A DNA stretch of 64,000 nt from an uncultured Candidatus Saccharibacteria bacterium (GCA_964348935.1 CAYGEJ010000001.1:51807-115806), one strand, 5' to 3'; positions 35 to 57,174 are shown, numbered from the stretch's first letter. The notes: generated by a model from the letters alone, not told the origin. Translations and numbers: made by a program.

Positions 35-826
35 ATGACTTGGACAGATGACCATGGACATACTCATATTATTAAAACAGAGTTTATTCCAGCAGAAAAA
101 AAATTCAAAGTTGTTGGTATGGATGATTATATAGCTTTAAGGGATTTTGCGTTAAATTATGCGTCTGCTAACGGATTGAATAAAGAACAAAGAGCTACGC
201 TTATTTCTGATATTGAAAAAAATAATACCCAAGGTACATATGGAGATCAAGCAACTGCCTTCAGACAATCACGCCCTGGGTTTAATCAGGCAAATTATAT
301 TAATGCAATGAAAGATCAGACAAAAATTGTAGAAAAAAATAACAACCTTAGTAAAAAAGGTGATATTGATCAAATTACTCAATGGTGGGAATCTTTAGTT
401 ACAAAAGATGCGACAGGTAATATAAGGTTGGGTAGTTCCGGAAAATATTTATTTACACATTGGAAATCTGGTCACGAATTTGCAGCTACACGTGGTAATT
501 TTGCCGACAAAGTACAAGCTCTAATGATGCCTATGGTGATAAATCACCCTGATATTTTAAAGGAGAATTTAAAAGATGCAATTCTTGAAAATTCTAGAGC
601 AGTAGGAAAACTTATGCCACCAGCAGTTTTGGCAAAAAAAGTCGCAGAAGCAGAGTACAAAACATTAAGAGTTGCATTTATGGCTGCGTTTAGAAATGAA
701 ACAGATTTAAAAAATACCATAAGAGAAGCTGGAGAGTTAGGCGATGGTAGTGAAGCGGATTATATACGTTTAAGTACAGCTCTAAGAACTAAATTAAATG
801 CTCCAGGTGTTTTAGATGAAGAATAA
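35..826 (+). CDS. hypothetical protein at the start of the T4SS-like locus
   Basis: Uninterrupted 263-aa ORF in the same orientation and closely spaced with the downstream VirB4-like genes. No motif I recognise. Confidence 0.4.
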   Translation: MTWTDDHGHTHIIKTEFIPAEKKFKVVGMDDYIALRDFALNYASANGLNKEQRATLISDIEKNNTQGTYGDQATAFRQSRPGFNQANYINAMKDQTKIVEKNNNLSKKGDIDQITQWWESLVTKDATGNIRLGSSGKYLFTHWKSGHEFAATRGNFADKVQALMMPMVINHPDILKENLKDAILENSRAVGKLMPPAVLAKKVAEAEYKTLRVAFMAAFRNETDLKNTIREAGELGDGSEADYIRLSTALRTKLNAPGVLDEE

Positions 827-842
827 TAAAACTTAATTTTTT

Positions 843-2129
843 ATGTTTTTAAGTATACAACAAGTTACAGAAATTATTAAACGATCTAAGTTTAAAAACG
901 ATTTTAAAGAACGACTTTTTTTGATTTTACCTAAACTTGAAAAATATACGTTAACAGGTCTTGGTTTAGAGGTGGATAAAAAAGATAGTCAACTTATTTC
1001 TGGTAAATTGGTTAAAACTTGGGAAGAATATGCTAAAATTATTAAAGAATTTGTAAATAATAATGAAACAGGTAAATCTTTTTTAGAGTTATTATCAGAA
1101 GCGAATGAGACCTTCAACGAAGAAAGAAAAATATTTTTTTTATATTTAGCAATGGATATAAAAAACCTTGTCGTTACTAATAAAGTAAATATTGAGGCTG
1201 AAATATATAATCAAATATTAGAATACGAAATAACTTTGTTTTGGAACTTGCCAAAAGAAGAAGTTTTATTTTTGTTAAAATTTAAAATTTTATTATTAGA
1301 AAGTAAATTTCAATTAGTTGAGAATATAAAGGTGGTAATCTGGTTTAATAGTTGGCACTACGAAAAAGATTTTAGCAAAATATTTACTTCATGCATTACG
1401 CAAAACTTCGAAGTTCTTGGAGGTATAAAAATAAGTAATTGGATTGAGAAGTATTTTAATTTTAGCACATCATCTACATTTAGAAATGATGTCATTCAGG
1501 TCGCTGAATTTTTAGTTAAAGACCCTAGTGTAAATATTTTAAAAGACAATGAAAGAAAAACTCTATCTGAAATACTCAAATTATATATATGGTTACTTAA
1601 GCCTGAAATAAATGAAGAGGAGATTTTGGCCTATAAAGAATTTATACGTCAGCAGAAAATGGATGAATTAAACGTCGGTATTGGAGATTTGGATGAAGAT
1701 GATATTGTGTACATTAACTCTCAACAATTTCAGTTGCCTGAGTTGGCGTTTGAGTCTCAGGTTGTTCCTCCGGTTGTTCCAGTACCCAATAAATCGGTAG
1801 TTGAAAAGCAGTCTAAGATTAAGCTGAATTTTGATGTAGATAAGACTGCAGTCGAATTAAATACCAAACCTGTTAAGATTGACGAAATTTTAAAGAAAAA
1901 AGAGGCTTTAATATCCCCGGGGTTGAGATTTCAGTCTAATGAAGACCAGCAAGCGACTCTTAAGTCCATACAAAGACCAAAAGAGATGTCGAAAGTGGAA
2001 GTGCCTGTTATTGCTCCGAAAAGTATAGATAGTTTTCAACCAAAAGCAGTAGAAATAGCTAAGCAAAACGATTTGGACATTGATAAAAAATTACAAGAGT
2101 TGGAAAAAAGGGTAAAGAATAAAAAATAA
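843..2129 (+). CDS. hypothetical protein
   Basis: 428-aa ORF starting 17 nt after the preceding gene. Acidic, Pro-rich C-terminal half. No recognisable domain. Confidence 0.4.
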   Translation: MFLSIQQVTEIIKRSKFKNDFKERLFLILPKLEKYTLTGLGLEVDKKDSQLISGKLVKTWEEYAKIIKEFVNNNETGKSFLELLSEANETFNEERKIFFLYLAMDIKNLVVTNKVNIEAEIYNQILEYEITLFWNLPKEEVLFLLKFKILLLESKFQLVENIKVVIWFNSWHYEKDFSKIFTSCITQNFEVLGGIKISNWIEKYFNFSTSSTFRNDVIQVAEFLVKDPSVNILKDNERKTLSEILKLYIWLLKPEINEEEILAYKEFIRQQKMDELNVGIGDLDEDDIVYINSQQFQLPELAFESQVVPPVVPVPNKSVVEKQSKIKLNFDVDKTAVELNTKPVKIDEILKKKEALISPGLRFQSNEDQQATLKSIQRPKEMSKVEVPVIAPKSIDSFQPKAVEIAKQNDLDIDKKLQELEKRVKNKK

Positions 2130-3349
2130 TGAATATTGCTCAACTTGAAAAATTAAAGGCACTTATTGCAAGTTCACCCATACTTAATGTTACGGAAAGA
2201 GCGGAATGGTTGGCGCTTTTGGAATTGATGAATGACAAGCAGTTAGGGGAGCTGGAAAAAATTTTATTAGAATATCAGCCAGCTAGTGAAGCTATAAATA
2301 AACCTGTCAGCTCTAAGTCTGTGACAGGTGCGCAAATTTTGCCAAAAAAAGCTGAGCCAAGCCAGCAGGTAAATGGTTTGGTAAATTCGTTAAGCGGTAA
2401 GTCTATAGGTGATTTGGCAGGCGATTTGGCGTTACATAAAGAACCAATTGCTAAATTGGCGCAAACTCAAAGTGCTTCCAAGTCGGCTCCGGTTATGCAA
2501 CTTCCTCATTTGAGTCATATTATGAACTTGCCTAATCATTGGGATGAGAAAAAATCTCAAACGCCTTTAGTTGCTAAGGAAAAGATTGATAAGACTGTTA
2601 AGGGCATTGGTAATAAGCAGAGTTTTGCGAGCAAGTTAAAGTCAATCTTTTTAGAAAAAGAACTGACAACCAGTAAGCCGGAATACCCTTTGGAATTAGC
2701 TGATCGTATGGAATTGGAGGCTCAACCCGTGGCAGTTGAAATTTCGCAAATCGAAACACAAAACAAACCAACTGTGCATTTGCCGGAAGTTGAAGTTAAA
2801 ACCAAAACCGAACCAATTGCAGTGGCTGTGCCGAAGCCAAAAGTTCCGTTGCCGAAGATATCGCTGAAACCTCAAATTATTCCTGAGAAGCCAGTTTGGA
2901 AGCCTATAAAGAAGCCTGATTTTTCACAAGGTAAATTTATTCCGGGAGTTGAATTTAAAGAGGATTCAATTGCTTCCCGTAATGACACACTTGCTAATGT
3001 TAAAAAACATTTGGAAGAAAAAGAAGACTTGCATGAGTCATTAAGACCGTTGAATACTAATGTAAATTTAAATGGTTTAGCAGATTTAAAAAATTTAACA
3101 ATAGATACTGTTGACTCTAGTGATTTAAGCAGTATGGTTAATAAAATTAGACAAATGATTTCGAAATACGGTTTTTTTGAAGTTATTTTCAATCTCGAAG
3201 ACAGTTGGGTTTATAAATCATATCTTGCTACCGGGGTAAAATTAATGTCAGAAAATACCCAGGGAGACGATAATTCACTAGAAAAGGTTATGAATAAATC
3301 GCAATTTGAAAAATTTGCAGATTTGTTGTCAAAAATTCAGTCAGCATAA
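2129..3349 (+). CDS. hypothetical Pro/Lys-rich protein
   Basis: 406-aa ORF whose start overlaps the stop of the previous gene (ATAATG). It has repetitive P-K-P-K stretches. Confidence 0.4.
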   Translation: MNIAQLEKLKALIASSPILNVTERAEWLALLELMNDKQLGELEKILLEYQPASEAINKPVSSKSVTGAQILPKKAEPSQQVNGLVNSLSGKSIGDLAGDLALHKEPIAKLAQTQSASKSAPVMQLPHLSHIMNLPNHWDEKKSQTPLVAKEKIDKTVKGIGNKQSFASKLKSIFLEKELTTSKPEYPLELADRMELEAQPVAVEISQIETQNKPTVHLPEVEVKTKTEPIAVAVPKPKVPLPKISLKPQIIPEKPVWKPIKKPDFSQGKFIPGVEFKEDSIASRNDTLANVKKHLEEKEDLHESLRPLNTNVNLNGLADLKNLTIDTVDSSDLSSMVNKIRQMISKYGFFEVIFNLEDSWVYKSYLATGVKLMSENTQGDDNSLEKVMNKSQFEKFADLLSKIQSA

Positions 3350-3388: not shown

Positions 3389-3835
3389 ATGCAATTTCCA
3401 GTCCCACAATTTACAGATGTTGAAGATCGAATAATTGGTCCTTTGACGATAAAGCAATTCGGTATTGTTTTTGTGGCAGGTGTTATAGTTTTTCTTGGAT
3501 ATTCGGCTACCAAAAGCATTCTCGTTTTAGTTTTTTTAATAGTATTATTTGGAGTTCCGGCTTTAGCCTTAGCTTTTCTGCCATTTAACGGCAGACCAGT
3601 TTATAACACTTTGGGGAATTTAATGAGATTTATGAATAGTCCAAAGGAATTAATTTTTCATAAAGAAGCCCAGAATTCAAATATAAAAATTGTAAAAGAT
3701 GCTGAAATAACTTCGGTGGCTGAGGTTCAAGCGGAAAATATAAACCCGGTAGATACTAAAGCTAATTTAAAAGAGGTACAAAAATTATTACGTGAGACAG
3801 CCTCAAAGCAAAGAGATGTAATTGGTAGAATGTAG
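3389..3835 (+). CDS. small two-TM membrane protein, possibly a PrgI/VirB3-like T4SS component
   Basis: 148 aa with two adjacent hydrophobic helices (FGIVFVAGVIVFLGY...LVLVFLIVLFGVPALALAFLPF). It sits directly upstream of the VirB4-like ATPase, which is the usual position of VirB3/PrgI-like proteins. Confidence 0.4.
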   Translation: MQFPVPQFTDVEDRIIGPLTIKQFGIVFVAGVIVFLGYSATKSILVLVFLIVLFGVPALALAFLPFNGRPVYNTLGNLMRFMNSPKELIFHKEAQNSNIKIVKDAEITSVAEVQAENINPVDTKANLKEVQKLLRETASKQRDVIGRM

Positions 3836-3889
3836 GACTAAGTTGCGAGTTGCTAATATTTAGTAACTAGCCACTAACAACTAGAGCTT

Positions 3890-4573
3890 ATGAAATTAGA
3901 CATGCAAAATAAAAATAAAACTACCACAAAAAGTACCCAGAGCTTTTTAAGAATATCTGAAATAAAAAATGACACAGTAGTAATGGATGACGGTACGCTA
4001 AGGGCAATAGTGGCTGTTTCAAGTACAAATTTTGATCTTAAAAGTCAAGATGAGCAAAATTCCATAATTTTTAATTTCCAAAGATTTTTGAATTCTTTAG
4101 ATTTTTCTATTCAGATTTTGATGCAAAGTCGAAAAATGGAAATTGGGGGCTATATGGAAAAGTTAAGGCGATTGGCTGAAAAACAGACAAATGAGTTGCT
4201 TCGCGTGCAAACTATTGAATATGTGGAGTTTATAAATAGACTTATTGAAAATGCGAGCATTATGAATAAGAATTTTTATATTATTGTCCCGTTGGGGACT
4301 TCCATATTACCGGTTGCATCTGGTTTTTTCTCGAACTTATTTGGTAATGGTAAAAATAAAGAGATTGCCCAAAAAATAGAGAATTTTGAAAGAGAAAAAG
4401 AAAAATTAGATACCCGAGTTTCCTCTTTATTATCTAACTTATCCGGTATAGGAATAAGGGGGGTTCCTTTAAAAACCGAAGAGATTATTCAATTGTATTA
4501 TAATTCTTATAATTTTGAAGCAGGTCCTCTAATAAACCCGTCGCAACTTAAAGATATTAAGATTAGTGAGTAG
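3890..4573 (+). CDS. VirB4/TrsE-like conjugal ATPase, N-terminal fragment (split gene)
   Basis: 227-aa ORF resembling the N-terminal domain of Gram-positive-type VirB4 (FLRISEIKNDTVVMDDGTLRAIVAVSSTNFDLKSQDEQNSIIFNFQRFLNSL..IQIL). It ends just before the four-helix-bundle gene. The downstream ORF continues with the next conserved VirB4 segment. Confidence 0.55.
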   Translation: MKLDMQNKNKTTTKSTQSFLRISEIKNDTVVMDDGTLRAIVAVSSTNFDLKSQDEQNSIIFNFQRFLNSLDFSIQILMQSRKMEIGGYMEKLRRLAEKQTNELLRVQTIEYVEFINRLIENASIMNKNFYIIVPLGTSILPVASGFFSNLFGNGKNKEIAQKIENFEREKEKLDTRVSSLLSNLSGIGIRGVPLKTEEIIQLYYNSYNFEAGPLINPSQLKDIKISE

Positions 4574-4587
4574 TTACTAGGTGCTAG

Positions 4588-5007
4588 GTGCAAGTGACTA
4601 GTATCAAACAAGCAGATATTAAGTATTTAATGAGTAATTCTATTATGTCGATATCTCATTATAAAGAATTAATAGTTTGGCAAAAATCTATGAATTTAGT
4701 AGATCTAATATATATAATAACTAGACAATTTCCAAAGTCGGAAACTTATGCATTAGCAAGTCAGATGCAAAGGTCAGCAATTTCTATACCTTCTAATATT
4801 GCAGAAGGGCAAGGTAGAAATCATAAAGCAGAATTTGTACACTTTTTAGGTATATCTTTTGGTTCCTCTGCCGAATTAGAAACACAAATTTTAATAGCTA
4901 AAAAACAGTATCCGCTATTAAATTATAATAAAGCTGAGGATTTATTAGTAGAAGTACAAAAAATGTTATCAGTTTTAATTAATCGTTTACTAGTCACTAA
5001 CAACTAG
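4588..5007 (+). CDS. four helix bundle protein (23S rRNA intervening-sequence protein family)
   Basis: 139 aa with the family signature (ELIVWQKSMNLVDLIYIITRQFPKSETYALASQMQRSAISIPSNIAEGQGR...FLGISFGSSAELETQILIA), as I recall this family. Located between the two VirB4 fragments. Confidence 0.8.
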   Translation: MQVTSIKQADIKYLMSNSIMSISHYKELIVWQKSMNLVDLIYIITRQFPKSETYALASQMQRSAISIPSNIAEGQGRNHKAEFVHFLGISFGSSAELETQILIAKKQYPLLNYNKAEDLLVEVQKMLSVLINRLLVTNN

Positions 5008-5024
5008 AAACTAGCAACTAACTC

Positions 5025-6872
5025 ATGGCTATATTTGGCACAATTGATGAGCAGGAATTAAAAGAGAAGCGAGAAGCTTTGAACGAAGCTGAGAAAGAAA
5101 GAGATTTAAGCTCTAGTCTTGGAGATTTGGAAAAAACCTACAAGGAAGGTTTGACTACTCTAAAAGACCTTATTGCTCCTGCTTCGCTTAAATTTAATAG
5201 TTCTAACTTTGAACTTAACGGTAAGTTTGGTCGTAGTTTTTTTGTGCTGGCATATCCGCGATTTCTTTCTACCAATTGGTTGTCTTTTATTATTCAAGCC
5301 GAAGGTGCATTGGATTTGTCCATGTTTATATATCCGATTGAGTCTGCGGATATCTTAAAAAAATTGAAGTCAAAAGTCGGGGAATTGGGATCCCAAATGT
5401 CCATAAATCAATCTAAGGGAATGGTTCGCGACCCAATGCTGGAAACGGCGTATAAGGATGTTGAAGGTTTGCGTGATAACTTAATGCAGGGTACGGAAAA
5501 GTATTTTCGATTTGCTTTGTATTTTACAATTTATGCAAATGACCTAAAAGAGTTAGACAAATTTTCTTCAACGTTGGAAAGTTCTTTGGGGTCAAAATTA
5601 GTGGTTACTAAACGAGCTTTATTGCAAACTCAAAATGGGTTGAATTCCACTTTGCCTTTAGGTTTAGATGAACTGGATGTTGCTAGTAATATGAATACCA
5701 GCCCACTTTCTAGCTGCTTCCCCTTTGTTTCCTCGGACTTGAGTAGTAATGACGGAGTTCTTTATGGTATAAATAGGCATAACAATAGTCTAATCCTATT
5801 TGACCGCTTTGCAATGGAAAATGCTAATTCAGTAGTATTTGCCAAATCCGGTGCTGGGAAGTCTTACGCGGTAAAATTAGAGGTTTTGAGGGCCTTAATG
5901 GTGGGGACGGAAGTAATTATTGTTGACCCGGAAAATGAATATCAGCATTTAGCGTCTGCTGTGGGCGGTACTTATTTAAGCGTTTCTTTAAATTCACCTT
6001 CCAGAATTAACCCGTTTGATTTACCGGTAGCTATTGAAGGAGAAGATAATACCGATGTACTTAGAAGTTCGGTTATTAATTTACTTGGATTGTTTAGTTT
6101 AATGCTTGGAAAATTAAACCCGACTGAAGAAGCATTAATGGATAAAGCTATTTGGCAGACTTATGCGAAAAAAGATATTACTCCTCAGCTTGCAGATTTT
6201 CGTGGAGTGGAATATCCGACGATGAATGATTTGGTGGAGATTCTAAATGGTATGGTTGGGGCGGAAAGTTTGGCTCAGAGAATGACAAAATATACGGAAG
6301 GGACTTTTGCCGGGTTGTTAAACCAGCAGACCAATGTCGTTTTAAATAATCAGCTGGTAGTGTTTTCTATTCGCGACCTGGAAGAGGAGTTGCGACCTAT
6401 TTCTATGTACATTATTTTGAATTATATTTGGAATATTGTTCGATCAGAACTTAAAAAGCGTATACTTGTTGTGGATGAAGCTTGGATTTTAATGCAGCAT
6501 GAAGATAGTGCGCGTTTCTTGTTTGGTATAGCCAAGCGTGCTCGAAAATATTATTTAGGATTAACCACAATAACTCAAGATGTCGCAGATTTTTTAGCCT
6601 CGCCTTACGGTAAGCCAATTGTGACAAACTCCTCTATACAGCTTTTACTTAAGCAAAGCCCCGCAGCTATTAATGTAATTGCAGAAACTTTTTTTCTTAC
6701 AGAAGGTGAAAAATATTTGCTTTTGGAAAGCGAAGTTGGAGAAGGGATTTTCTTTGCAGGTTTAAAACACGCGGCGATTAAGATTTATGCGTCTTATGTT
6801 GAAGACCAGATTATTACCACGGATCCAAAACAGTTGTTGGAAATTCAGGATAGCCAGGATAAACTTGGTTAA
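5025..6872 (+). CDS. virB4: VirB4/TrbE/TraC-like type IV secretion ATPase (C-terminal ATPase part)
   Basis: Walker A FAKSGAGKSYAV, Walker B ILVVDEAWIL and the conserved VirB4 N-proximal segment (GKFGRSFFVLAYPRFLSTNWLSFII...DLSMFIYPIE). 615 aa. Confidence 0.8.
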   Translation: MAIFGTIDEQELKEKREALNEAEKERDLSSSLGDLEKTYKEGLTTLKDLIAPASLKFNSSNFELNGKFGRSFFVLAYPRFLSTNWLSFIIQAEGALDLSMFIYPIESADILKKLKSKVGELGSQMSINQSKGMVRDPMLETAYKDVEGLRDNLMQGTEKYFRFALYFTIYANDLKELDKFSSTLESSLGSKLVVTKRALLQTQNGLNSTLPLGLDELDVASNMNTSPLSSCFPFVSSDLSSNDGVLYGINRHNNSLILFDRFAMENANSVVFAKSGAGKSYAVKLEVLRALMVGTEVIIVDPENEYQHLASAVGGTYLSVSLNSPSRINPFDLPVAIEGEDNTDVLRSSVINLLGLFSLMLGKLNPTEEALMDKAIWQTYAKKDITPQLADFRGVEYPTMNDLVEILNGMVGAESLAQRMTKYTEGTFAGLLNQQTNVVLNNQLVVFSIRDLEEELRPISMYIILNYIWNIVRSELKKRILVVDEAWILMQHEDSARFLFGIAKRARKYYLGLTTITQDVADFLASPYGKPIVTNSSIQLLLKQSPAAINVIAETFFLTEGEKYLLLESEVGEGIFFAGLKHAAIKIYASYVEDQIITTDPKQLLEIQDSQDKLG

Positions 6873-6958: not shown

Positions 6959-9454
6959 ATGGCAGATGACCTGGTAGATGAATTAAATACTGACAGCTCT
7001 AGTTCTCCGACGGCACAAGATGTGGACGCTTTGTCAAGCGAACAGGTGTCTTCTAATACGGTTAAAGTTAGAGAGCTTTTTAAAACCGGGAATACTGACA
7101 GAATTATTTATGATATTTCCACAGATGGTAAACCAAAACGTACTTCCGGCTGGAGAATTCATGACAATAGCCAGGTAGAAATTTCAGGAAGCGGACTTGG
7201 AGTTTATGATCAGGTTGTTTTGTGGATAAGTGGTAGTCCTTTTTATCATAAAAATTTAGGAGGTCGTGAACAAGGGCGGTTGTTAACTTTTCAGGTTGAA
7301 GATTTAAGTAATTTGTACAGTGAAGGTACTCCGGTTGAAATTCAATTTGTTGATTCTAAAAATCCGGAAAATAGTAGATTTTTACAGCAGAAATTTACTT
7401 ATGTACAAGCAAAAACCGATGAAGAACAAGCGAAAAAAAGTCCGGAAGATGTAGAGAACGCAAGATTAGAACGACAAAAAGAGGATGCAAAAATAAATGG
7501 CCCAATGTCTGTGATGATGGACGGTATGGGGCAAGCTATTGGAGGTGTTGGTGGTGTACTACCCAGCAGTGCCAATAAAGATATTAGACCAAAAGGAAAT
7601 ATAGAAAATAATCAAGCAGTTCCTGCTAAGAGTAGTCTTTCTCAGAATGTGGAAGAAGGTGATTCTATAGATACTGAAGAGAATTTAAGTGTAGATGGTG
7701 AGGTTGTAAATTCATCTACCAATGTATCGGATGATAGAGTTCCGATTAGTGAAATGGGAACTGTGAAAAAATCTGATATTTCCCAGGATTCTTCCACTAC
7801 GGTTACAGAGAGTAGTACTCAAAAAACTTCAGGGAATTTGGAATCATCCAGAACAGTAAAAGGTGGGGGTAAGTTAAATGGGGCTGGGTCAGTGAATGCG
7901 ACAGATGACGGAGCTGTGAGCTTGGGTGTTAAATCTCAAGTTTTGGAGACAGGAAATGATGGGGTGGTAGAAAAAGAACCAACACCACCAAATGCTATTG
8001 TGTCAGGTAAAGCTGAAAGTTCGACTCAAGAAAAACTTGATGTATTCGGAACAAGTCAAGTTTCGGAACAAGAACAAGCAAATTTTTCGGCTAATGGAAA
8101 CATTGGAACCTCTAAACAAAAAAAAGCTTCAGAGTTAAAGTCAAAAACTCAAACAGGAATAAGTTCTAGTACTAAGGGGCGAGTACAGGCTTCAGCTTCG
8201 AACCAGCAATTGAATACAGATGATTCAAGACCACAGGCAAGCACTATGTCTAGTGCTAATGCCACTGCACAAGCAAAGCCTTTAAAACCTCCTGCTGGAC
8301 TAGGAGCGATGAAGTCGCTTGAAATAAATTTAAACAAGACTTTGGGTGTGCCTCTAGGAGTTGGAAGTGCTCCCGGAGTATTAAATAAGCCTAGTGAAAT
8401 TACTAAAAGTAGTAATCAGCCTGAAACCAAGAATCAACCTACGACAGAATTGGAAGGTGAAACTATAAATCTTCAGGGGGTTGAAAGTGGACAGGGTTTA
8501 GAGGTTGGTGGTTTAGCCGAACCAGTAGTTCCTCATGAAGGTCAAGAAAAAAAACCGGATGTTGGTTTGGTCTTGAGTAAATCCGACAGAGCTGGTAGCG
8601 AGCCATTTAGACCAAAAACTGGAGTGGAGTCAAGAGGGAAGTCATTTGGTTCAGAAAGGCCTATTGGCGATTTAAACAGACGAACTGAGCCGGATGTTAT
8701 ATTAAATAAAAAGCTCAAGAATAATGAAGATTTGTCATTTGGTGAAAGGAGTTTGGGAATGTCGGCAAGACCGGCAGGTCCAGATGTTGCAGGTGGCGCT
8801 TCTGTCGGTGCGGAAACACAAGATCCGGTAGAGAGTGGAAAAAAGGATGGTGGTGAAACTCAGGATAGCGAGGAGGAGGCAGAAGAGGAAAATCTGGGTT
8901 TACAGCCAGTTATACCGGAAGAGGTAATGCCTGATCCAAGTACAAGCAAGGCGGACGCCTCGAAAGAGGATGTTGCTGACAAGGCTTTAAGTGTTATAGC
9001 AGATAGTAAAGCTGGAAAAGAATTGGTAGGTCAGGCCGTAAGTGAATTTTGGTGGTGGGGATTTGGTATTTCATCCGCTTCATTATTTATTGGTTTGGAT
9101 TTTTTAGCCGGTGCGGTAATAATGAATGTTTATTGGTGGAGACATAGAAAACAGCCAGAGCTTTTACCTATGAAAGGCTGGCAAAAAGTTGTTACAGTTT
9201 TTGCCAGTGTATTTCCTTTTTTTGTTATAACCTTTTTATTGGGATTATTTATGATAGTAGGATGTAATTATCCAATTCTTGGTAAGTATTCAAAATTAGT
9301 GAGTTATAAAACAACAGTCGTGGGAGCATTTATAGGGGAAGATTGTAAATATTTTGATATTACAAGTAGTTCCGAGCTAGATGGCACAGAGAATAACACA
9401 AATCCCCAAAATTTAACCCCTAATCCTTTAAATCCAAGGGGAGTGTCACCTTAG
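6959..9454 (+). CDS. large low-complexity (Ser/Thr/Gly-rich) protein with a C-terminal multi-TM anchor
   Basis: 831-aa ORF. Long disordered S/T/G/E-rich region, then hydrophobic helices near the C-terminus (FWWWGFGISSASLFIGLDFLAGAVIMNVYWW ... VFPFFVITFLLGLFMIVG). Immediately downstream of VirB4, so it may be a T4SS-associated surface or channel protein. Confidence 0.5.
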   Translation: MADDLVDELNTDSSSSPTAQDVDALSSEQVSSNTVKVRELFKTGNTDRIIYDISTDGKPKRTSGWRIHDNSQVEISGSGLGVYDQVVLWISGSPFYHKNLGGREQGRLLTFQVEDLSNLYSEGTPVEIQFVDSKNPENSRFLQQKFTYVQAKTDEEQAKKSPEDVENARLERQKEDAKINGPMSVMMDGMGQAIGGVGGVLPSSANKDIRPKGNIENNQAVPAKSSLSQNVEEGDSIDTEENLSVDGEVVNSSTNVSDDRVPISEMGTVKKSDISQDSSTTVTESSTQKTSGNLESSRTVKGGGKLNGAGSVNATDDGAVSLGVKSQVLETGNDGVVEKEPTPPNAIVSGKAESSTQEKLDVFGTSQVSEQEQANFSANGNIGTSKQKKASELKSKTQTGISSSTKGRVQASASNQQLNTDDSRPQASTMSSANATAQAKPLKPPAGLGAMKSLEINLNKTLGVPLGVGSAPGVLNKPSEITKSSNQPETKNQPTTELEGETINLQGVESGQGLEVGGLAEPVVPHEGQEKKPDVGLVLSKSDRAGSEPFRPKTGVESRGKSFGSERPIGDLNRRTEPDVILNKKLKNNEDLSFGERSLGMSARPAGPDVAGGASVGAETQDPVESGKKDGGETQDSEEEAEEENLGLQPVIPEEVMPDPSTSKADASKEDVADKALSVIADSKAGKELVGQAVSEFWWWGFGISSASLFIGLDFLAGAVIMNVYWWRHRKQPELLPMKGWQKVVTVFASVFPFFVITFLLGLFMIVGCNYPILGKYSKLVSYKTTVVGAFIGEDCKYFDITSSSELDGTENNTNPQNLTPNPLNPRGVSP

Positions 9455-17429: not shown

Positions 17430-18026
17430 TTAACGGAGATCTTTATTATCTAATTTTATTAATTCTTGAAGTTTTGTAATTGCACGGTGTTGTATGACCC
17501 TAATAGCACCTTCGCTTTTATTTAAAATTTCTGAGATTTCACTGTTATCTAAATCTTCAAAAAATTTAAGTTTTAAAACAATTTGTTGGTCTTGAGGTAG
17601 CTCCTTGATAAATTTTAACAGTGAGATTTGTTGTTGCTCCAGGTTGACTACATCGATAACATTTGTTTCATATTCCAGTGTGTTTTCTACTTCATCTAGA
17701 CTAATAGTCATTTTTTTCCCTCGGTAGTAATCTATGACTTGATTTCTCGCAATTTGGTATAGCCATCCCAAGAAAGCTTTATTTTCATTCACAGAGCTTA
17801 TTCGGGTGAAGGCTTTAAGAAAAACTTCTTCGGTTAAGTCCTCAGATATCTCTTTATGACTAACACGGAAATAAATAAAGGTATAAATTTTTTTGAAATA
17901 TAAGTTATATATTTCACCAAAGGCAGTTTGTTCGCCATTTTTGGCTTTATTTAGTAAGGACTCCAAAATACGAGGTTTGTCCTCTAAATTGCTGGAACTA
18001 ATATTAAAGACGTAGGAGTTGGTCAT
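17430..18026 (-). CDS. RNA polymerase sigma-70 factor, ECF subfamily
   Basis: Region 2 (FLKAFTRISS, WLYQIARNQVIDYYR) and region 4 HTH (DNSEISEILNKSEGAIRVIQHRAITKLQE). 198 aa. Confidence 0.8.
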   Translation of the reverse strand: MTNSYVFNISSSNLEDKPRILESLLNKAKNGEQTAFGEIYNLYFKKIYTFIYFRVSHKEISEDLTEEVFLKAFTRISSVNENKAFLGWLYQIARNQVIDYYRGKKMTISLDEVENTLEYETNVIDVVNLEQQQISLLKFIKELPQDQQIVLKLKFFEDLDNSEISEILNKSEGAIRVIQHRAITKLQELIKLDNKDLR

Positions 18027-31289: not shown

Positions 31290-31307
31290 TTAAAAATAAA
31301 AAAAATG

Positions 31308-31337
31308 CGTCGCCCATGCTGTGAAGCGAGGGCGACG
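31308..31337 (-). terminator. GC-rich intrinsic terminator of the minus-strand Cys-rich peptide operon
   Basis: Minus strand CGUCGCCC-loop-GGGCGACG followed by CAUUUUUUUUAUUUUU, 24 nt after the P3 stop codon. Confidence 0.5.
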
Positions 31338-31360
31338 GTTGGGTGGTTTGCGTTTCGTCA

Positions 31361-31684
31361 TTAAATAGGATGACGTGGGCTGTCGCCGAAAGGGTCGGAA
31401 TCCAGAAATTCTTTCCCTGGGTGCCCTGATTGGCTTGGTATGTCATCAGGGTTTCCAGAGGGGGTGTTGATGGTCGCACCCATCCAACCGTTATCCACAG
31501 CGGCTGAATTGTCTTCGAGGTAGTGCTCTTTCACACCACGTTTTGGCGACAGTAACCCGTCGGCGTATGGCGGGGCGATAATGATGGAATGTTGTAGTGG
31601 TTGCTGGCCAATCTTGTCGCAACAGTGACGTATGCTACAGGGTTGGTCAATTTCTTTATGGCAATTGCAAGGACATATCGCCAT
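31361..31684 (-). CDS. Cys/His-rich small protein P3 (107 aa), paralogue of the upstream 41-aa peptide plus a C-terminal extension
   Basis: Internal ATG of the 212-aa track ORF with an SD (UAAGGAGAAAAACU-AUG) that overlaps the stop of the preceding peptide gene. N-terminus MAICPCNCHKEIDQPCSIRHCCDKIGQQPL. GC-rich codon usage unlike the host. Confidence 0.5.
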   Translation of the reverse strand: MAICPCNCHKEIDQPCSIRHCCDKIGQQPLQHSIIIAPPYADGLLSPKRGVKEHYLEDNSAAVDNGWMGATINTPSGNPDDIPSQSGHPGKEFLDSDPFGDSPRHPI

Positions 31685-31695
31685 AGTTTTTCTCC

Positions 31696-31821
31696 TTAGT
31701 CTGTGAACGGGTGAGTTTGGTCGACCTCTTCGAGAGGTTTTCCTTTCTGCGAACAGCAACGGTGATTTTCGCACTCGTCGTTTTCTACTCCCACATGGCA
31801 AGAGCAGTGACAGGTTTTCAT
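31696..31821 (-). CDS. Cys/His-rich peptide P2 (41 aa): MKTCHCSCHVGVENDECENHRCCSQKGKPLEEVDQTHPFTD
   Basis: My own reverse-complement translation. ATG preceded by AAAGGAGGACUGGAAA. Not in the ORF track (under 60 aa). Shares C-x-C-x-C-H-x(6,7)-C-x(2,3)-H-x-C-C-x-K-x-G-x-x-P-L with P3. Confidence 0.45.
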   Translation of the reverse strand: MKTCHCSCHVGVENDECENHRCCSQKGKPLEEVDQTHPFTD

Positions 31822-31881
31822 TTTCCAGTCCTCCTTTGAATGAAATAGTAGCAAGAAAAGGGGAAAAAGGCAAAAAGAAAA

Positions 31882-31911
31882 CGCGGACAGGGTGGCAAGC
31901 CACTGTCCGCG
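31882..31911 (-). terminator. intra-operon intrinsic terminator or attenuator between the PEP-CTERM gene and the Cys-rich peptide genes
   Basis: Minus strand CGCGGACAG-UGGCUUGCCACC-CUGUCCGCG followed by UUUUCUUUUUGCCUUUUUCC. Confidence 0.4.
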
Positions 31912-31973
31912 TAAAGGTTGTAATGCGCGTTGCTATTTTTACCCAGCACTTTGCCGTGTGGTGGGGTTTCTTC

Positions 31974-32720
31974 TTACCGCTGGCGCCGTATCGCGGCAAT
32001 GCCTACGAGTCCAGCACCCATCAGTACGAAGGTCGTGGGTTCGGGAGTCTCGGTCCCAAGTCCACCCGACGGCTGGCTCGGAAAGCTGTAGTCCCAATAC
32101 TCAGGGTGGCGGTAAAAGTAAGGAGTGTGTTCACCCCTCAGGTAGTTTACAATCTCCCCAAGGTTGTTGATGTCGTAGGAGAACCACACTGAGGCGAGCA
32201 AGTAGTTATCGGTGTAACGATAACCGCTGTTAGTGCCGGCACAACCGCCACTAAGCCCTGCCAGAACCAAATCCCGGCAGTCGTAGGTACTGGTGGTGTT
32301 TTCTGATACCGCAATAAGCGACCTCGATTTTTGTCCGTAAACATGGGTTATGTTCTCGAACGGAAATAGGACTGTCTGGATATACGAGTTCGTTATAAAA
32401 CTCAACGATTCGTACAAGGTGTTAGTCCGTCCCGAGTTACTGGTTGGGTCTGTGAACATAGTAATGCTTACTTGATTGTCTTTTCTTTCGTTGAGACTTG
32501 AACCCTGGTAACTCGTAATCCAGCGACCAGAACCATCTGGGGCTTCGTATGACCCCTGATAGGTGGTGAGTGTGCGATAGTTGTAATCGTACCCATTGGC
32601 ATAACCACCATCTAAGTTGAGGTTCCAGGGCTGAAAATCGTCCTGGAGGACGATTGTGCCGGCCGTTGCCGACATGGCCAGAGCAAAAAAGCCGAACATA
32701 GAAATAAAAAGAGCGCGCAT
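31974..32720 (-). CDS. PEP-CTERM sorting-domain protein (secreted, Gly/Tyr/Asn-rich)
   Basis: Internal ATG with strong SD (AAGGAGGACUUAC-AUG). Signal peptide MRALFISMFGFFALAMSATAG. C-terminal TPEPTTFVLMGAGLVGIAAIRRQR is the PEP-CTERM tripartite motif (PEP, TM helix, Arg cluster). 248 aa from this start. The track ORF extends upstream to 32879 with no RBS. Confidence 0.6.
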   Translation of the reverse strand: MRALFISMFGFFALAMSATAGTIVLQDDFQPWNLNLDGGYANGYDYNYRTLTTYQGSYEAPDGSGRWITSYQGSSLNERKDNQVSITMFTDPTSNSGRTNTLYESLSFITNSYIQTVLFPFENITHVYGQKSRSLIAVSENTTSTYDCRDLVLAGLSGGCAGTNSGYRYTDNYLLASVWFSYDINNLGEIVNYLRGEHTPYFYRHPEYWDYSFPSQPSGGLGTETPEPTTFVLMGAGLVGIAAIRRQR

Positions 32721-32838
32721 GTAAGTCCTCCTTAAGGACTTGTGGAGCTTAAAAGCTCCACGGTTTTGTTCTTGGTTGGCCTTTAGGGGCCGAAAATAAA
32801 TAGATCGAACTGTTAAAAGTTTTACAGGTCGACGATAT

Positions 32839-32867
32839 ATTATACTCTTTTTTTGGGTTTTTGTCAA
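32839..32867 (-). promoter_or_regulatory. consensus sigma70 promoter (TTGACA-N17-TATAAT) of the island 2 operon
   Basis: Minus strand cattGACAaaaacccaaaaaaagagTATAATatatcg. About 115-nt structured 5' UTR, including a hairpin that pairs part of the SD (AAGUCC-UUAAGGA-GGACUU) next to the start codon. Confidence 0.4.
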
Positions 32868-32878
32868 TGCTAAATACA

Positions 32879-32906
32879 AATAACACCCTTATTTAAGGGT
32901 GTTATT
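32879..32906 (-). terminator. hairpin terminator or insulator at the island 2 right edge, downstream of the HTH gene
   Basis: AAUAACACCCU-UAUUUA-AGGGUGUUAUU (11-bp stem) then UUGUAUUU on the minus strand. Sits between the HTH gene stop and the island promoter. Confidence 0.4.
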
Positions 32907-32970: not shown

Positions 32971-33225
32971 TTAACTGCTTGTGTTTGTTCTTTGCTTAGC
33001 TTTTTTATAAGCATTTTTAACCGTGACTAAATTTAGTCCAAGTTCCTTAGCAACTTCTTCAGGAGTTTTACCGGAGTCTACCATGTTCATTATTTGAAGC
33101 TGTCGTTCTGTAGCTTCTTTTCCTTTTGGGCTAAATTCTTCTAGAGCTCTACCAGCTTTAACTCTCATAGTAGGGTCTTCTAATACTTCTTGTAAATTTT
33201 TACTTAAGAATTTTTTCTCAGACAT
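32971..33225 (-). CDS. small DNA-binding protein with a sigma-70 region-4 / LuxR-type HTH
   Basis: 84 aa. LQIMNMVDSGKTPEEVAKELGLNLVTVKNAYKKAKQ resembles region 4.2 HTH. Start is a few nt from the miaA stop. Confidence 0.5.
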   Translation of the reverse strand: MSEKKFLSKNLQEVLEDPTMRVKAGRALEEFSPKGKEATERQLQIMNMVDSGKTPEEVAKELGLNLVTVKNAYKKAKQRTNTSS

Positions 33226-56271: not shown

Positions 56272-56334
56272 TTGGGGTTTAAATTTAAATTGTGGCCGAA
56301 AGTGTAATTCGGCCGAAGTTTTTCGGACTCTTTG

Positions 56335-56547
56335 TTAGGAGTCCTGTTTTTTTGGTTGCTCAAGTCGGATCGCGGTTTTGTACGCCCATTTGGAAATGGG
56401 CATGAAAATCGAGATTCCATGGAGTATGGTCACTCCTACGGTGTTGCTAGTGCAACTTTCGGGAGTGTAGCACGCTCCATTTGCCATGGGTATTACCCAA
56501 AACTCGAGTGCCAGGCTCAGTAAGCCAAAACCAAGAAACCAATACAT
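56335..56547 (-). CDS. secreted or membrane-anchored 70-aa peptide with two Cys (island 4)
   Basis: ATG preceded by GUAGGAGGGCACA. Signal or TM segment MYWFLGFGLLSLALEFWVIPMANGA, then CYTPESCTSNTVGVTILHG... Divergent from the RHH regulator gene. Its stop overlaps a folA terminator hairpin. Confidence 0.45.
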   Translation of the reverse strand: MYWFLGFGLLSLALEFWVIPMANGACYTPESCTSNTVGVTILHGISIFMPISKWAYKTAIRLEQPKKQDS

Positions 56548-56654
56548 TGTGCCCTCCTACGGGTCATTGTTTGCAAAGACTTGTCAATTATTCTTTGCAC
56601 ACTAATTTTGCCATAAACCTTTGGGAATATCCATACCCCCAAAAAACGGTACCC

Positions 56655-56683
56655 TTGACAAAACGGGTAAAAGGGTGTATAAT
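56655..56683 (+). promoter_or_regulatory. consensus sigma70 promoter (TTGACA-N17-TATAAT) for the RHH regulator gene, with a second TATAAT 15 nt downstream
   Basis: cccTTGACAaaacgggtaaaagggtgTATAATaatcaattttttgtTATAATttg. Lies 50 nt upstream of the ATG at 56734. Confidence 0.4.
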
Positions 56684-56733
56684 AATCAATTTTTTGTTAT
56701 AATTTGTGAGCTCTGGTTTTTGAGATAATCGTT

Positions 56734-57174
56734 ATGTCACAATATATCGATCGTCACAAAAACAAACGTATGGTTGCACCAAGACTGTGCGAAACCGAAA
56801 TCCAAAAGCTCATGGCAACAAGGATGTTGCCAGGTCACGACCGCCATTCGAGGTTAGAGTTTTTGCTTACGCTAATGACCGAATTAGCCGAGCAGGAACT
56901 TGAATATCGTTTGGCGCCTACTAATACAGAGGCAAGGCATGGGCACGGAACACATCTTCGTATTTCAGACGAGCTGTGGGACAGATTACAAACCTATGCT
57001 TCAGTGTATAGGATGAGAACAGGTGAGCTTGCTCACGAACTGATACTGCTTGGCCTAGAGCTAGTGGAAGAAATAGAGAAAGTGGTCAAGTGGCCACTTA
57101 GGAAGGAGGAGATAAAAAGCCGGTTTAAAAGGACACTTGAACTTCGGTATGGGCGCATGCGCCAGCCGATTTAA
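56734..57174 (+). CDS. tandem ribbon-helix-helix (RHH) DNA-binding protein, putative repressor
   Basis: Two beta-alphaA-alphaB units: KRMVAPRLCETEIQKLMATRMLPGHDRHSRLEFLLTLMTELAEQ and THLRISDELWDRLQTYASVYRMRTGELAHELILLGLELVEE. GC-rich. 146 aa. Confidence 0.5.
   Translation: MSQYIDRHKNKRMVAPRLCETEIQKLMATRMLPGHDRHSRLEFLLTLMTELAEQELEYRLAPTNTEARHGHGTHLRISDELWDRLQTYASVYRMRTGELAHELILLGLELVEEIEKVVKWPLRKEEIKSRFKRTLELRYGRMRQPI

Follow-up and report, generated by a model that had tools for sequence, protein, structure and literature searches.

Tandem genes for small Cys/His-rich proteins, possibly of metallothionein type, in a Candidatus Doudnabacteria genome

Metallothioneins fold only when metal is bound (review PMC7558416), and they offer the nearest functional analogy, judged by motif, for two tandem genes, P2 and P3, described here from a 64,000-nucleotide (nt) stretch of DNA assigned to an uncultured Candidatus Saccharibacteria bacterium (GCA_964348935.1, CAYGEJ010000001.1:51807-115806; hereafter, the window, at its full length). 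The closest precedent is MymT, the mycobacterial Cu(I) metallothionein of 53 amino acids (aa), whose thiolate core can bind as many as six Cu(I). The likeness lies in very short proteins of cytoplasmic type that annotation misses and that are orphans of one lineage, and in the CHC-type, CxC and CC motifs accompanied by His. MymT belongs to a copper regulon (RicR), however, whereas no regulator or copper context was seen here, and a pairwise BLASTP comparison with a MymT sequence, to be taken with caution, was not significant (E = 0.011, with 8 gaps [24%] in 33 columns).

By generic metallothionein traits, P2, with 15% Cys in 41 aa and with C-x-C-x-C and CC, fits the looser definitions but is low in Cys for a classical member. 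The bacterial metallothioneins BmtA and SmtA (PF02069) are likewise small and rich in Cys and His, and their metal-thiolate cluster also uses His as a ligand, but SmtA has a zinc-finger-like fold with a conserved pattern of its own. None of the five members of the present family matched PF02069 at E ≤ 10, and a profile search of the PDB did not return SmtA, whose structure is solved (1JJD; review PMC7558416). SCIFF peptides (ranthipeptides) are also short and contain six Cys, in their case six in forty-five residues, but these are C-terminal and the gene always lies beside a radical SAM maturase, whereas the Cys of P2 and P3 are N-terminal. No NCBIfam model of that group matched P2 or P3, and no radical SAM gene was present among the open reading frames (ORFs) scanned in the window, namely, those of 100 aa or more. 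The polycopper Cys-rich motifs of the fungal regulators Mac1 and Ace1 (CxCx4CxCx2Cx2H) and of CopY (CxCx4CxC) share with P2 and P3 the combination of C-x-C pairs with His, five to six thiolates within about 20 residues, and the possibility of a Cu4S6-type or Zn cluster; these motifs, however, are C-terminal in DNA-binding proteins, and P2 and P3 lack a DNA-binding domain and differ in spacing. ZAS anti-sigma factors resemble the pair as small Cys/His proteins near a helix-turn-helix (HTH) or sigma-like gene, but no anti-sigma domain matched, the adjacent HTH gene is not conserved with the family, and the only extracytoplasmic function (ECF) sigma factor in the window is 14 kb away.

A paralogous pair and its relatives

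In agreement with the original prediction, P2 and P3 are read as two ORFs on the minus strand (Table 1), 11 nt apart. The Shine-Dalgarno site of P2 (AGGAGG) lies 8 nt 5' of its ATG, and that of P3 (TAAGGAG) overlaps the stop codon of P2; this overlap, together with the short spacer, makes the predicted translational coupling of the two genes plausible. Both products are acidic and carry six Cys within residues 1 to 23. His residues number four in P2 and six in P3, with three to four of them in the core of about 23 residues, and P2 has a single Phe. The tail of P3 is Pro/Gly/Asp rich, as had been noted, and comprises 74 aa, of which Pro, Gly, Asp, and Ser make up 45%. Neither sequence contains a signal peptide or a hydrophobic or transmembrane segment, and the Cys motif begins at residue 4; the best reading is that both proteins are cytoplasmic, and the extracytoplasmic role once suggested for them does not fit these features.

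The similarity between the N termini of P2 and P3, when scored, exceeds that expected from composition, and it bears out their description as tandem paralogues. With composition adjustment, BLASTP aligns the N-terminal 43 columns at E = 6e-4, and the local score of P2 against residues 1 to 45 of P3 is 57, a value reached by 5 of 20,000 composition-preserving shuffles (mean, 25; standard deviation, 5). The two proteins do not align residue for residue, as had been claimed, but require two to three single-residue gaps.

Members of the family were found in three lineages. Besides the window, these are locus L005, a syntenic relative that carries orthologues of both P2 and P3 at the equivalent site and in an equivalent GC-rich island, and locus L011, whose member was found by screening 48 Doudnabacteria-like loci. 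L005 derives from run SRR12901047, and an identical sequence (L001) was assembled independently from run SRR12901042. The L011 protein, when compared with P3, attains a score that was reached in 0 of 20,000 shuffles, and the ATG and Shine-Dalgarno site are kept in all three lineages. In an alignment of the five sequences (alignment A3: P2, P3, their L005 orthologues, and the L011 protein), M1, C4, C6, C8, H9, C16, C21, and G26 are invariant, and C22 is present in four of the five. The motif as corrected from this alignment is M-x(2-8)-C-x-C-x-C-H-x(5,7)-C-x(3,4)-C-C-x3-G, followed by P-[YF]-x-D, and its portion from the first Cys through the Gly fits P2, P3, and the distant L011 protein. The pattern first proposed, C.C.CH.{6,7}C.{2,3}H.CC, matches P2 but fails on P3, where the His directly abuts the CC pair, and the His that it places ahead of the CC pair, after the fourth Cys, is unconserved across the five sequences. 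No CxxC occurs in P2, P3, the L005 orthologues, or the L011 protein, so that zinc ribbons, rubredoxin knuckles, and the HxxxCxxC of ZAS proteins are excluded; on this basis, an anti-sigma zinc switch, another of the early suggestions, is not supported.

Beyond the core, the segment PPYxDGxLxP is kept from P3 to L011. The single-copy, P3-like form of L011 suggests that the ancestral form was probably also P3-like and single copy, with P2 probably a duplicate cut down to the domain alone and specific to the lineage of the window and L005.

Substitutions between the window and L005 are those of coding sequence. The ratio of nonsynonymous to synonymous substitution rates (dN/dS) is 0.17 for P3 (first 75 codons; dS, 1.44) and 0.33 for P2 (dS, 0.75), and the same comparison yields 0.08 for gatB (dS, 1.43) and 0.21 for the neighboring PEP-CTERM gene (dS, 1.39). 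Third codon positions account for 33 of the 68 differences in P3 and for 15 of the 33 in P2, and the FGDSPRHP segment at the C terminus of P3 shows 6 synonymous and 0 nonsynonymous codon changes. The low dN/dS and the excess at third positions indicate that the ORFs are translated and under selection; on these codon comparisons, P2 and P3 are genuine protein-coding genes under purifying selection.

Both L005 genes are interrupted (Table 1), and their in-frame stops are identical in the two independent assemblies. The simplest explanation is that these stops are recent nonsense mutations, and the replacement of one Cys by Tyr in the L005 orthologue of P2 is consistent with relaxed selection; the tail beyond the TAA of the P3 orthologue differs from that of the window by purely synonymous changes.

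Outside these three lineages, database searches returned no relatives. A word-indexed protein search recovered P3 itself and its L005 orthologue and gave no candidates for P2, and when 1.84 billion representatives were searched exhaustively with a HMMER profile, only P0002 and a low-complexity match to the tail were returned. P2, its L005 orthologue, and the L011 gene had not been called as genes, and P2 and the L011 protein are missing from a 15-billion-protein collection, since genes so short go uncalled. A local hidden Markov model found no member beyond the five ORFs among 19,929 six-frame segments (50 loci, L005 to L054, plus the window). When GTDB genomes and JGI metagenomes were scanned at the DNA level with patterns from alignment A2, nothing was returned, but these patterns were so narrow that they missed L011, which is in the collection, making those negatives weak; the family may therefore extend to more than three lineages. 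There was no credible match in Pfam or NCBIfam (P2, P3, and L011) or in PHROGs, nothing relevant in sequence and profile searches of the PDB, and no match by Foldseek against the PDB, in keeping with the initial view that the motif lies outside known families. A match to EGF_C8A_B_C6 at E = 0.047 reflects Cys composition, and the one match in a viral scan was a false positive that overlapped a phage terminase gene out of frame. The motif and Cys-rich small proteins in Patescibacteria were both sought in the literature, and nothing was found. As far as these searches reach, the family is new, without detectable relatives, and found so far only in Candidatus Doudnabacteria.

Table 1. Positions of the genes and elements discussed (window coordinates unless a locus is named)
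Feature	Coordinates	Strand	Details
P2	31696-31821	minus	41 aa; core domain only, 6 Cys; ATG start; reads MKTCHCSCHVGVENDECENHRCCSQKGKPLEEVDQTHPFTD
P3	31361-31684	minus	107 aa; ATG start; Cys6/His core, APPYADGLLSP segment, and Pro/Gly/Asp/Ser-rich tail ending FGDSPRHPI
Putative sigma-70-type promoter of P2-P3	31845-31873	minus	-35 TTGCCT (31873-31868), 17-nt spacer, TG-extended -10 TACTAT (31850-31845)
Pyrimidine-rich upstream block	31822-31882 (L005 4893-4950)	minus	Near-invariant; includes P2 Shine-Dalgarno site, CCTCCT on plus strand (31830-31835)
Predicted intrinsic terminator of P2-P3	31291-31337	minus	Hairpin CGUCGCCC...GGGCGACG plus U-tract; -19.3 kcal/mol, z = -5.9; also found in terminator scan
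Terminator hairpin of PEP-CTERM gene	31883-31910	minus	-20.4 kcal/mol, z = -5.2, then UUUUCUUUUU U-tract
PEP-CTERM secreted protein	31974-32720	minus	248 aa from MRALF...; inside GC-rich island, separate transcription unit
Promoter of PEP-CTERM gene	32839-32867	minus	Perfect consensus TTGACA-17-TATAAT, 12/12 matches
GC-rich island	31291-32880		1.6 kb, 45-55% GC, between gatB and HTH-miaA genes
HTH gene	32971-33225	minus	84 aa, GerE/sigma-70 region-4-like; overlaps miaA stop codon; next to island, also in L005
ECF sigma factor	17430-18026		
PrgI-family protein and TraG/VirB4-like P-loop ATPase	3389-6872		
Large ORFs flanking the PrgI/VirB4-like genes	35-3349; 6959-9454		No Pfam match
23S rRNA-intervening-sequence protein	4588-5007		
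Second GC-rich patch	56272-56733		46-48% GC against 31-35% in flanks
Orphan ORF after second patch	56734-57174		146 aa; GC3 0.47; no Pfam match
P2 orthologue	L005 4958-5083		In-frame TAG after KPLT, then conserved tail VDQIHPFED
P3 orthologue	L005 5098-5391		In-frame TAA after TEND, then tail FQFGDSPRHPW
Nfu_N-domain protein	L005 4499-4846		115 aa, signal-peptide-like N terminus; 34.4 bits against cutoff of 27; directly upstream of cassette
Extra ORF	L005 5397-5537		46 aa, downstream of P3 orthologue
L011 member	L011 7725-7913	minus	62 aa: MSTIAKARCACPCHSKSGHCIGGCCRESGKKWVENPPTIHKDPPPYPDGSLRPQPRKKEDYQ; single copy, in gatB/miaA gap
ANRDEIMERFF ORFs	L021 3934-4137; L022 8010-8252; L032 7652-7840, 8322-8525; L024 7765-8106		

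Candidate functions of P2 and P3

The reading that we favor, tentatively and at a little under an even chance, is that P2 and P3 are cytoplasmic modules for a metal-thiolate cluster of metallothionein-like type. The metal-binding module of the original prediction is thus retained as the most reasonable reading of the motif chemistry, and it is that chemistry from which metal binding, the identity of the metal, and the role of the tail are all deduced. In its favor is the density of Cys and His in the core, arranged as C-x-C and CC with no CxxC. The six thiolates and the invariant His9 would wrap a small cluster, for example, of the Zn2S6 or Cu(I)4S6 type seen in metallothioneins and in copper sensors of fungi; without metal, the peptide would be disordered, and it would fold upon binding the metal. 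P2 would be the bare cluster module, and P3 and the L011 form would contact a partner through the added PPYxDGxLxP segment and the disordered tail. AlphaFold models made with no metal have low confidence (predicted local distance difference test [pLDDT] of 53 for P3, with no secondary structure, and of 65 for P2), which is cited in support of folding on metal; in P2, residues 3 to 18 are modeled as a weak beta-hairpin and a short helix (pLDDT of ~71).

Several observations weigh against a metal-thiolate role. No experiment or homology ties the motif to any metal, and there is no metal transporter, metal-sensing regulator, or chaperone among the ORFs scanned in the 64-kb window. A cupredoxin gene is nearby, but it is present in nearly all Doudnabacteria, with or without the peptide. 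The Cys fractions, approximately 15% in P2 and approximately 6% in full-length P3, are low for a classical metallothionein. Additionally, the L005 orthologue of P2 has Tyr in place of one of the six Cys, and, with the stops before the tails, this may mean that the system is decaying in the L005 lineage. The conservation statistics, moreover, are thin, as they come from three lineages only.

The same Cys6His arrangement might instead be a structural zinc mini-domain, the folding nucleus of a small adaptor or regulator. The PPYxDGxLxP segment and the tail would then bind a cellular partner, and P2, as the domain alone, would compete with P3 or modulate it. We consider this unlikely, although it is the alternative that fares best. 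The retention of PPY.DG.L.P...K..Y after the core from P3 to the distant L011 protein, the strict purifying selection on FGDSPRHP (6 synonymous changes and no nonsynonymous ones), and the weakly modeled hairpin and helix of P2 are all consistent with it, as is the presence of the small GerE/sigma-70 region-4-like HTH gene beside the island in both the window and L005. However, the motif has neither CxxC knuckles nor any other known zinc-finger spacing, the Foldseek search of the PDB was empty, and there is no candidate for the partner. The HTH gene itself is absent at the L011 locus, and its product is just 28% identical between the window and L005.

An extended form of the metallothionein-like reading is improbable. 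It holds that the proteins are a new metal-thiolate class confined to Doudnabacteria and exchanged among these episymbionts as a promoter-gene-terminator module at a gatB/miaA hotspot, with the L005 tails produced by read-through of TAG and TAA, the read-through being proposed because FGDSPRHP past the TAA diverges only synonymously.

More doubtful still is that P2 and P3 are precursors of ribosomally synthesized and posttranslationally modified peptides (RiPPs), with an N-terminal core, the tail acting as a follower as in bottromycin, and maturase genes at other genomic sites. Precursor arrays typically consist of short, Cys-rich ORFs that stand in tandem, have diverged, and are served by a strong promoter, and the position of the core at the extreme N terminus, with a conserved C-terminal segment after it, would also suit such an arrangement. 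Nevertheless, no gene for a radical SAM, SPASM, YcaO, or LanB/C/M protein or other lanthipeptide enzyme or for a peptidase-transporter was present among the scanned window ORFs, in L005, or near L011, neither SCIFF nor any other NCBIfam precursor model matched, and the unit is self-contained from promoter to terminator in three different neighborhoods. The genomes of Doudnabacteria are small, which also counts against this reading, and the precursor/leader pair that had been put forward is not upheld.

A role in iron-sulfur (Fe-S) handling or electron transfer through a bound Fe-S cluster has a similarly slight probability. Six Cys suffice for a [4Fe-4S] or [2Fe-2S] cluster, and in L005 an Nfu_N-domain gene lies directly upstream of the cassette. 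The Nfu_N protein, however, has a signal-peptide-like N terminus that P2 and P3 lack, its gene is missing from the window and from L011, and no Pfam family matched. The C-x-C-x-C and CC spacing is, moreover, unlike the motifs of ferredoxins, high-potential iron-sulfur proteins, and SPASM domains.

Least probable of all is that the ORFs are fortuitous or decaying remnants, without present function, in imported DNA: the foreign composition, the near absence of the family from databases, and the in-frame stops and Cys-to-Tyr change in L005 would be so explained, but dN/dS is far below 1 at saturating dS, invariant Cys and His residues are shared by all three lineages, conservation extends to the Shine-Dalgarno sites, promoter, and terminator, and three independent assemblies contain the window copies in intact form.

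Transcription, neighboring genes, and host

P2 and P3 form an autonomous two-gene unit, as judged from the flanking terminators and a promoter of their own. The promoter scores 8/12 against the consensus, under the scan threshold, and its assignment is inferred from consensus and conservation. In the 56-nt promoter/leader block, the window and L005 agree at 55 of 56 positions, although coding dS is ~1.4 and synonymous sites are saturated; this degree of conservation indicates strong constraint and suggests the binding of a regulator, an UP element, or a DNA structure. An RNA fold that would hide the P2 Shine-Dalgarno site was not significant (z = -1.56), Rfam gave no match in or around the island, and an exact scan of metagenomes for the P2-P3 promoter returned 0 matches. 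The P2-P3 terminator is kept in L005 with one compensated difference in the stem. The L011 gene has a TTGACT-17-TACACT promoter, a GGAGG site, and a terminator of its own.

Cotranscription with the PEP-CTERM gene, as first proposed, is not supported, given the strong hairpin and T-tract that lie between this gene and P2, followed by the promoter-like block; an equivalent hairpin follows the PEP-CTERM gene in L005. The identity of the neighbor itself is well supported by profile scores (PF07589, 26.2 bits against a cutoff of 20.7; TIGR02595, 19.3 against 16) and by its tail, ...TETPEPTTFVLMGAGLVGIAAIRRQR, and its L005 orthologue (P0005) is 63% identical. A fixed link of the peptides to a PEP-CTERM gene is likewise not supported by the relatives, since L005 has the secreted Nfu_N gene directly upstream of the cassette and the L011 homologue has no adjoining PEP-CTERM gene. 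Proteins with PEP-CTERM tails are encoded in the gatB-miaA gap of at least seven loci (L007, L010, L030, L031, L038, L044, and L053), always with a higher G+C content at third codon positions (GC3) than their gatB. No exosortase-like protein with many transmembrane segments was found in the 64-kb window, and literature searches on PEP-CTERM or exosortase in candidate phyla radiation bacteria found nothing.

The host genome is placed in Candidatus Doudnabacteria (Patescibacteria) by the relatives of its GatB, which at 61 to 83% identity are metagenome-assembled genomes labeled Candidatus Doudnabacteria or Patescibacteria. The order gatB, gap, then miaA and the cupredoxin gene on the opposite strand is kept across ~40 of these loci, and the gap ranges from 30 bp to >2 kb. 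The scanned window ORFs are ordinary housekeeping genes (gatCAB, secA, clpB, recG, mreBC, a penicillin-binding protein gene, thyA, folA, ribosomal protein genes, and others).

The GC-rich island stands in a genome of 30 to 38% GC (about 35%). Its genes have a GC3 of 0.50 to 0.58, against a host median of 0.28, and C at third positions (C3) of 0.34 to 0.36, against 0.11 to 0.18 in ribosomal protein genes; with C3 this low in ribosomal protein genes, the high GC3 cannot be put down to expression-linked codon bias. An assembly chimera is likewise excluded, as the junctions are repeated in two further independent Logan assemblies (ERR3094302 and ERR3094292) and in the syntenic L005. The cassette was probably drawn from the gene pool of higher-GC Doudnabacteria. 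By a rough amelioration argument, the high GC3 in both lineages despite a dS of ~1.4 favors repeated import at the gatB/miaA hotspot over a single ancient insertion.

Beside the island, the HTH protein shares only 28% identity with the protein encoded at the corresponding position in L005, compared with 78% for miaA, indicating that it is evolving very fast. The window has no counterparts of the Nfu_N gene and the 46-aa ORF of L005. The gaps of other Doudnabacteria hold a different family of small ORFs that share the motif ANRDEIMERFF, most of which (the L024 copy excepted) end in a zinc-ribbon-like CxxPGCGYxLNxDGSCxGC.

Elsewhere in the window, a second GC-rich patch contains a 460-nt intergenic stretch that folds far better than shuffled sequences (z = -5.2; 0 of 100) and has no Rfam match, making the patch a candidate for either a structured RNA missed by annotation or a small insert of foreign origin; an orphan ORF follows it. 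Genes for a PrgI-family protein and a TraG/VirB4-like P-loop ATPase, flanked by two large ORFs, resemble a cluster for type IV secretion or a conjugation-like process, and a 23S rRNA-intervening-sequence protein is encoded within the same coordinates.

Meaning for Patescibacteria

The present importance of P2 and P3 is modest, as they belong to a narrowly distributed orphan family whose function is guessed from chemistry. If they do bind metal, they would represent a previously unseen family of metallothionein type and a rare clue to how metals are handled in Patescibacteria, a group with reduced genomes that are largely devoid of recognizable genes for metal homeostasis. Because such short genes escape calling, orphan mini-protein families of uncultured lineages can be mapped only at the DNA level.

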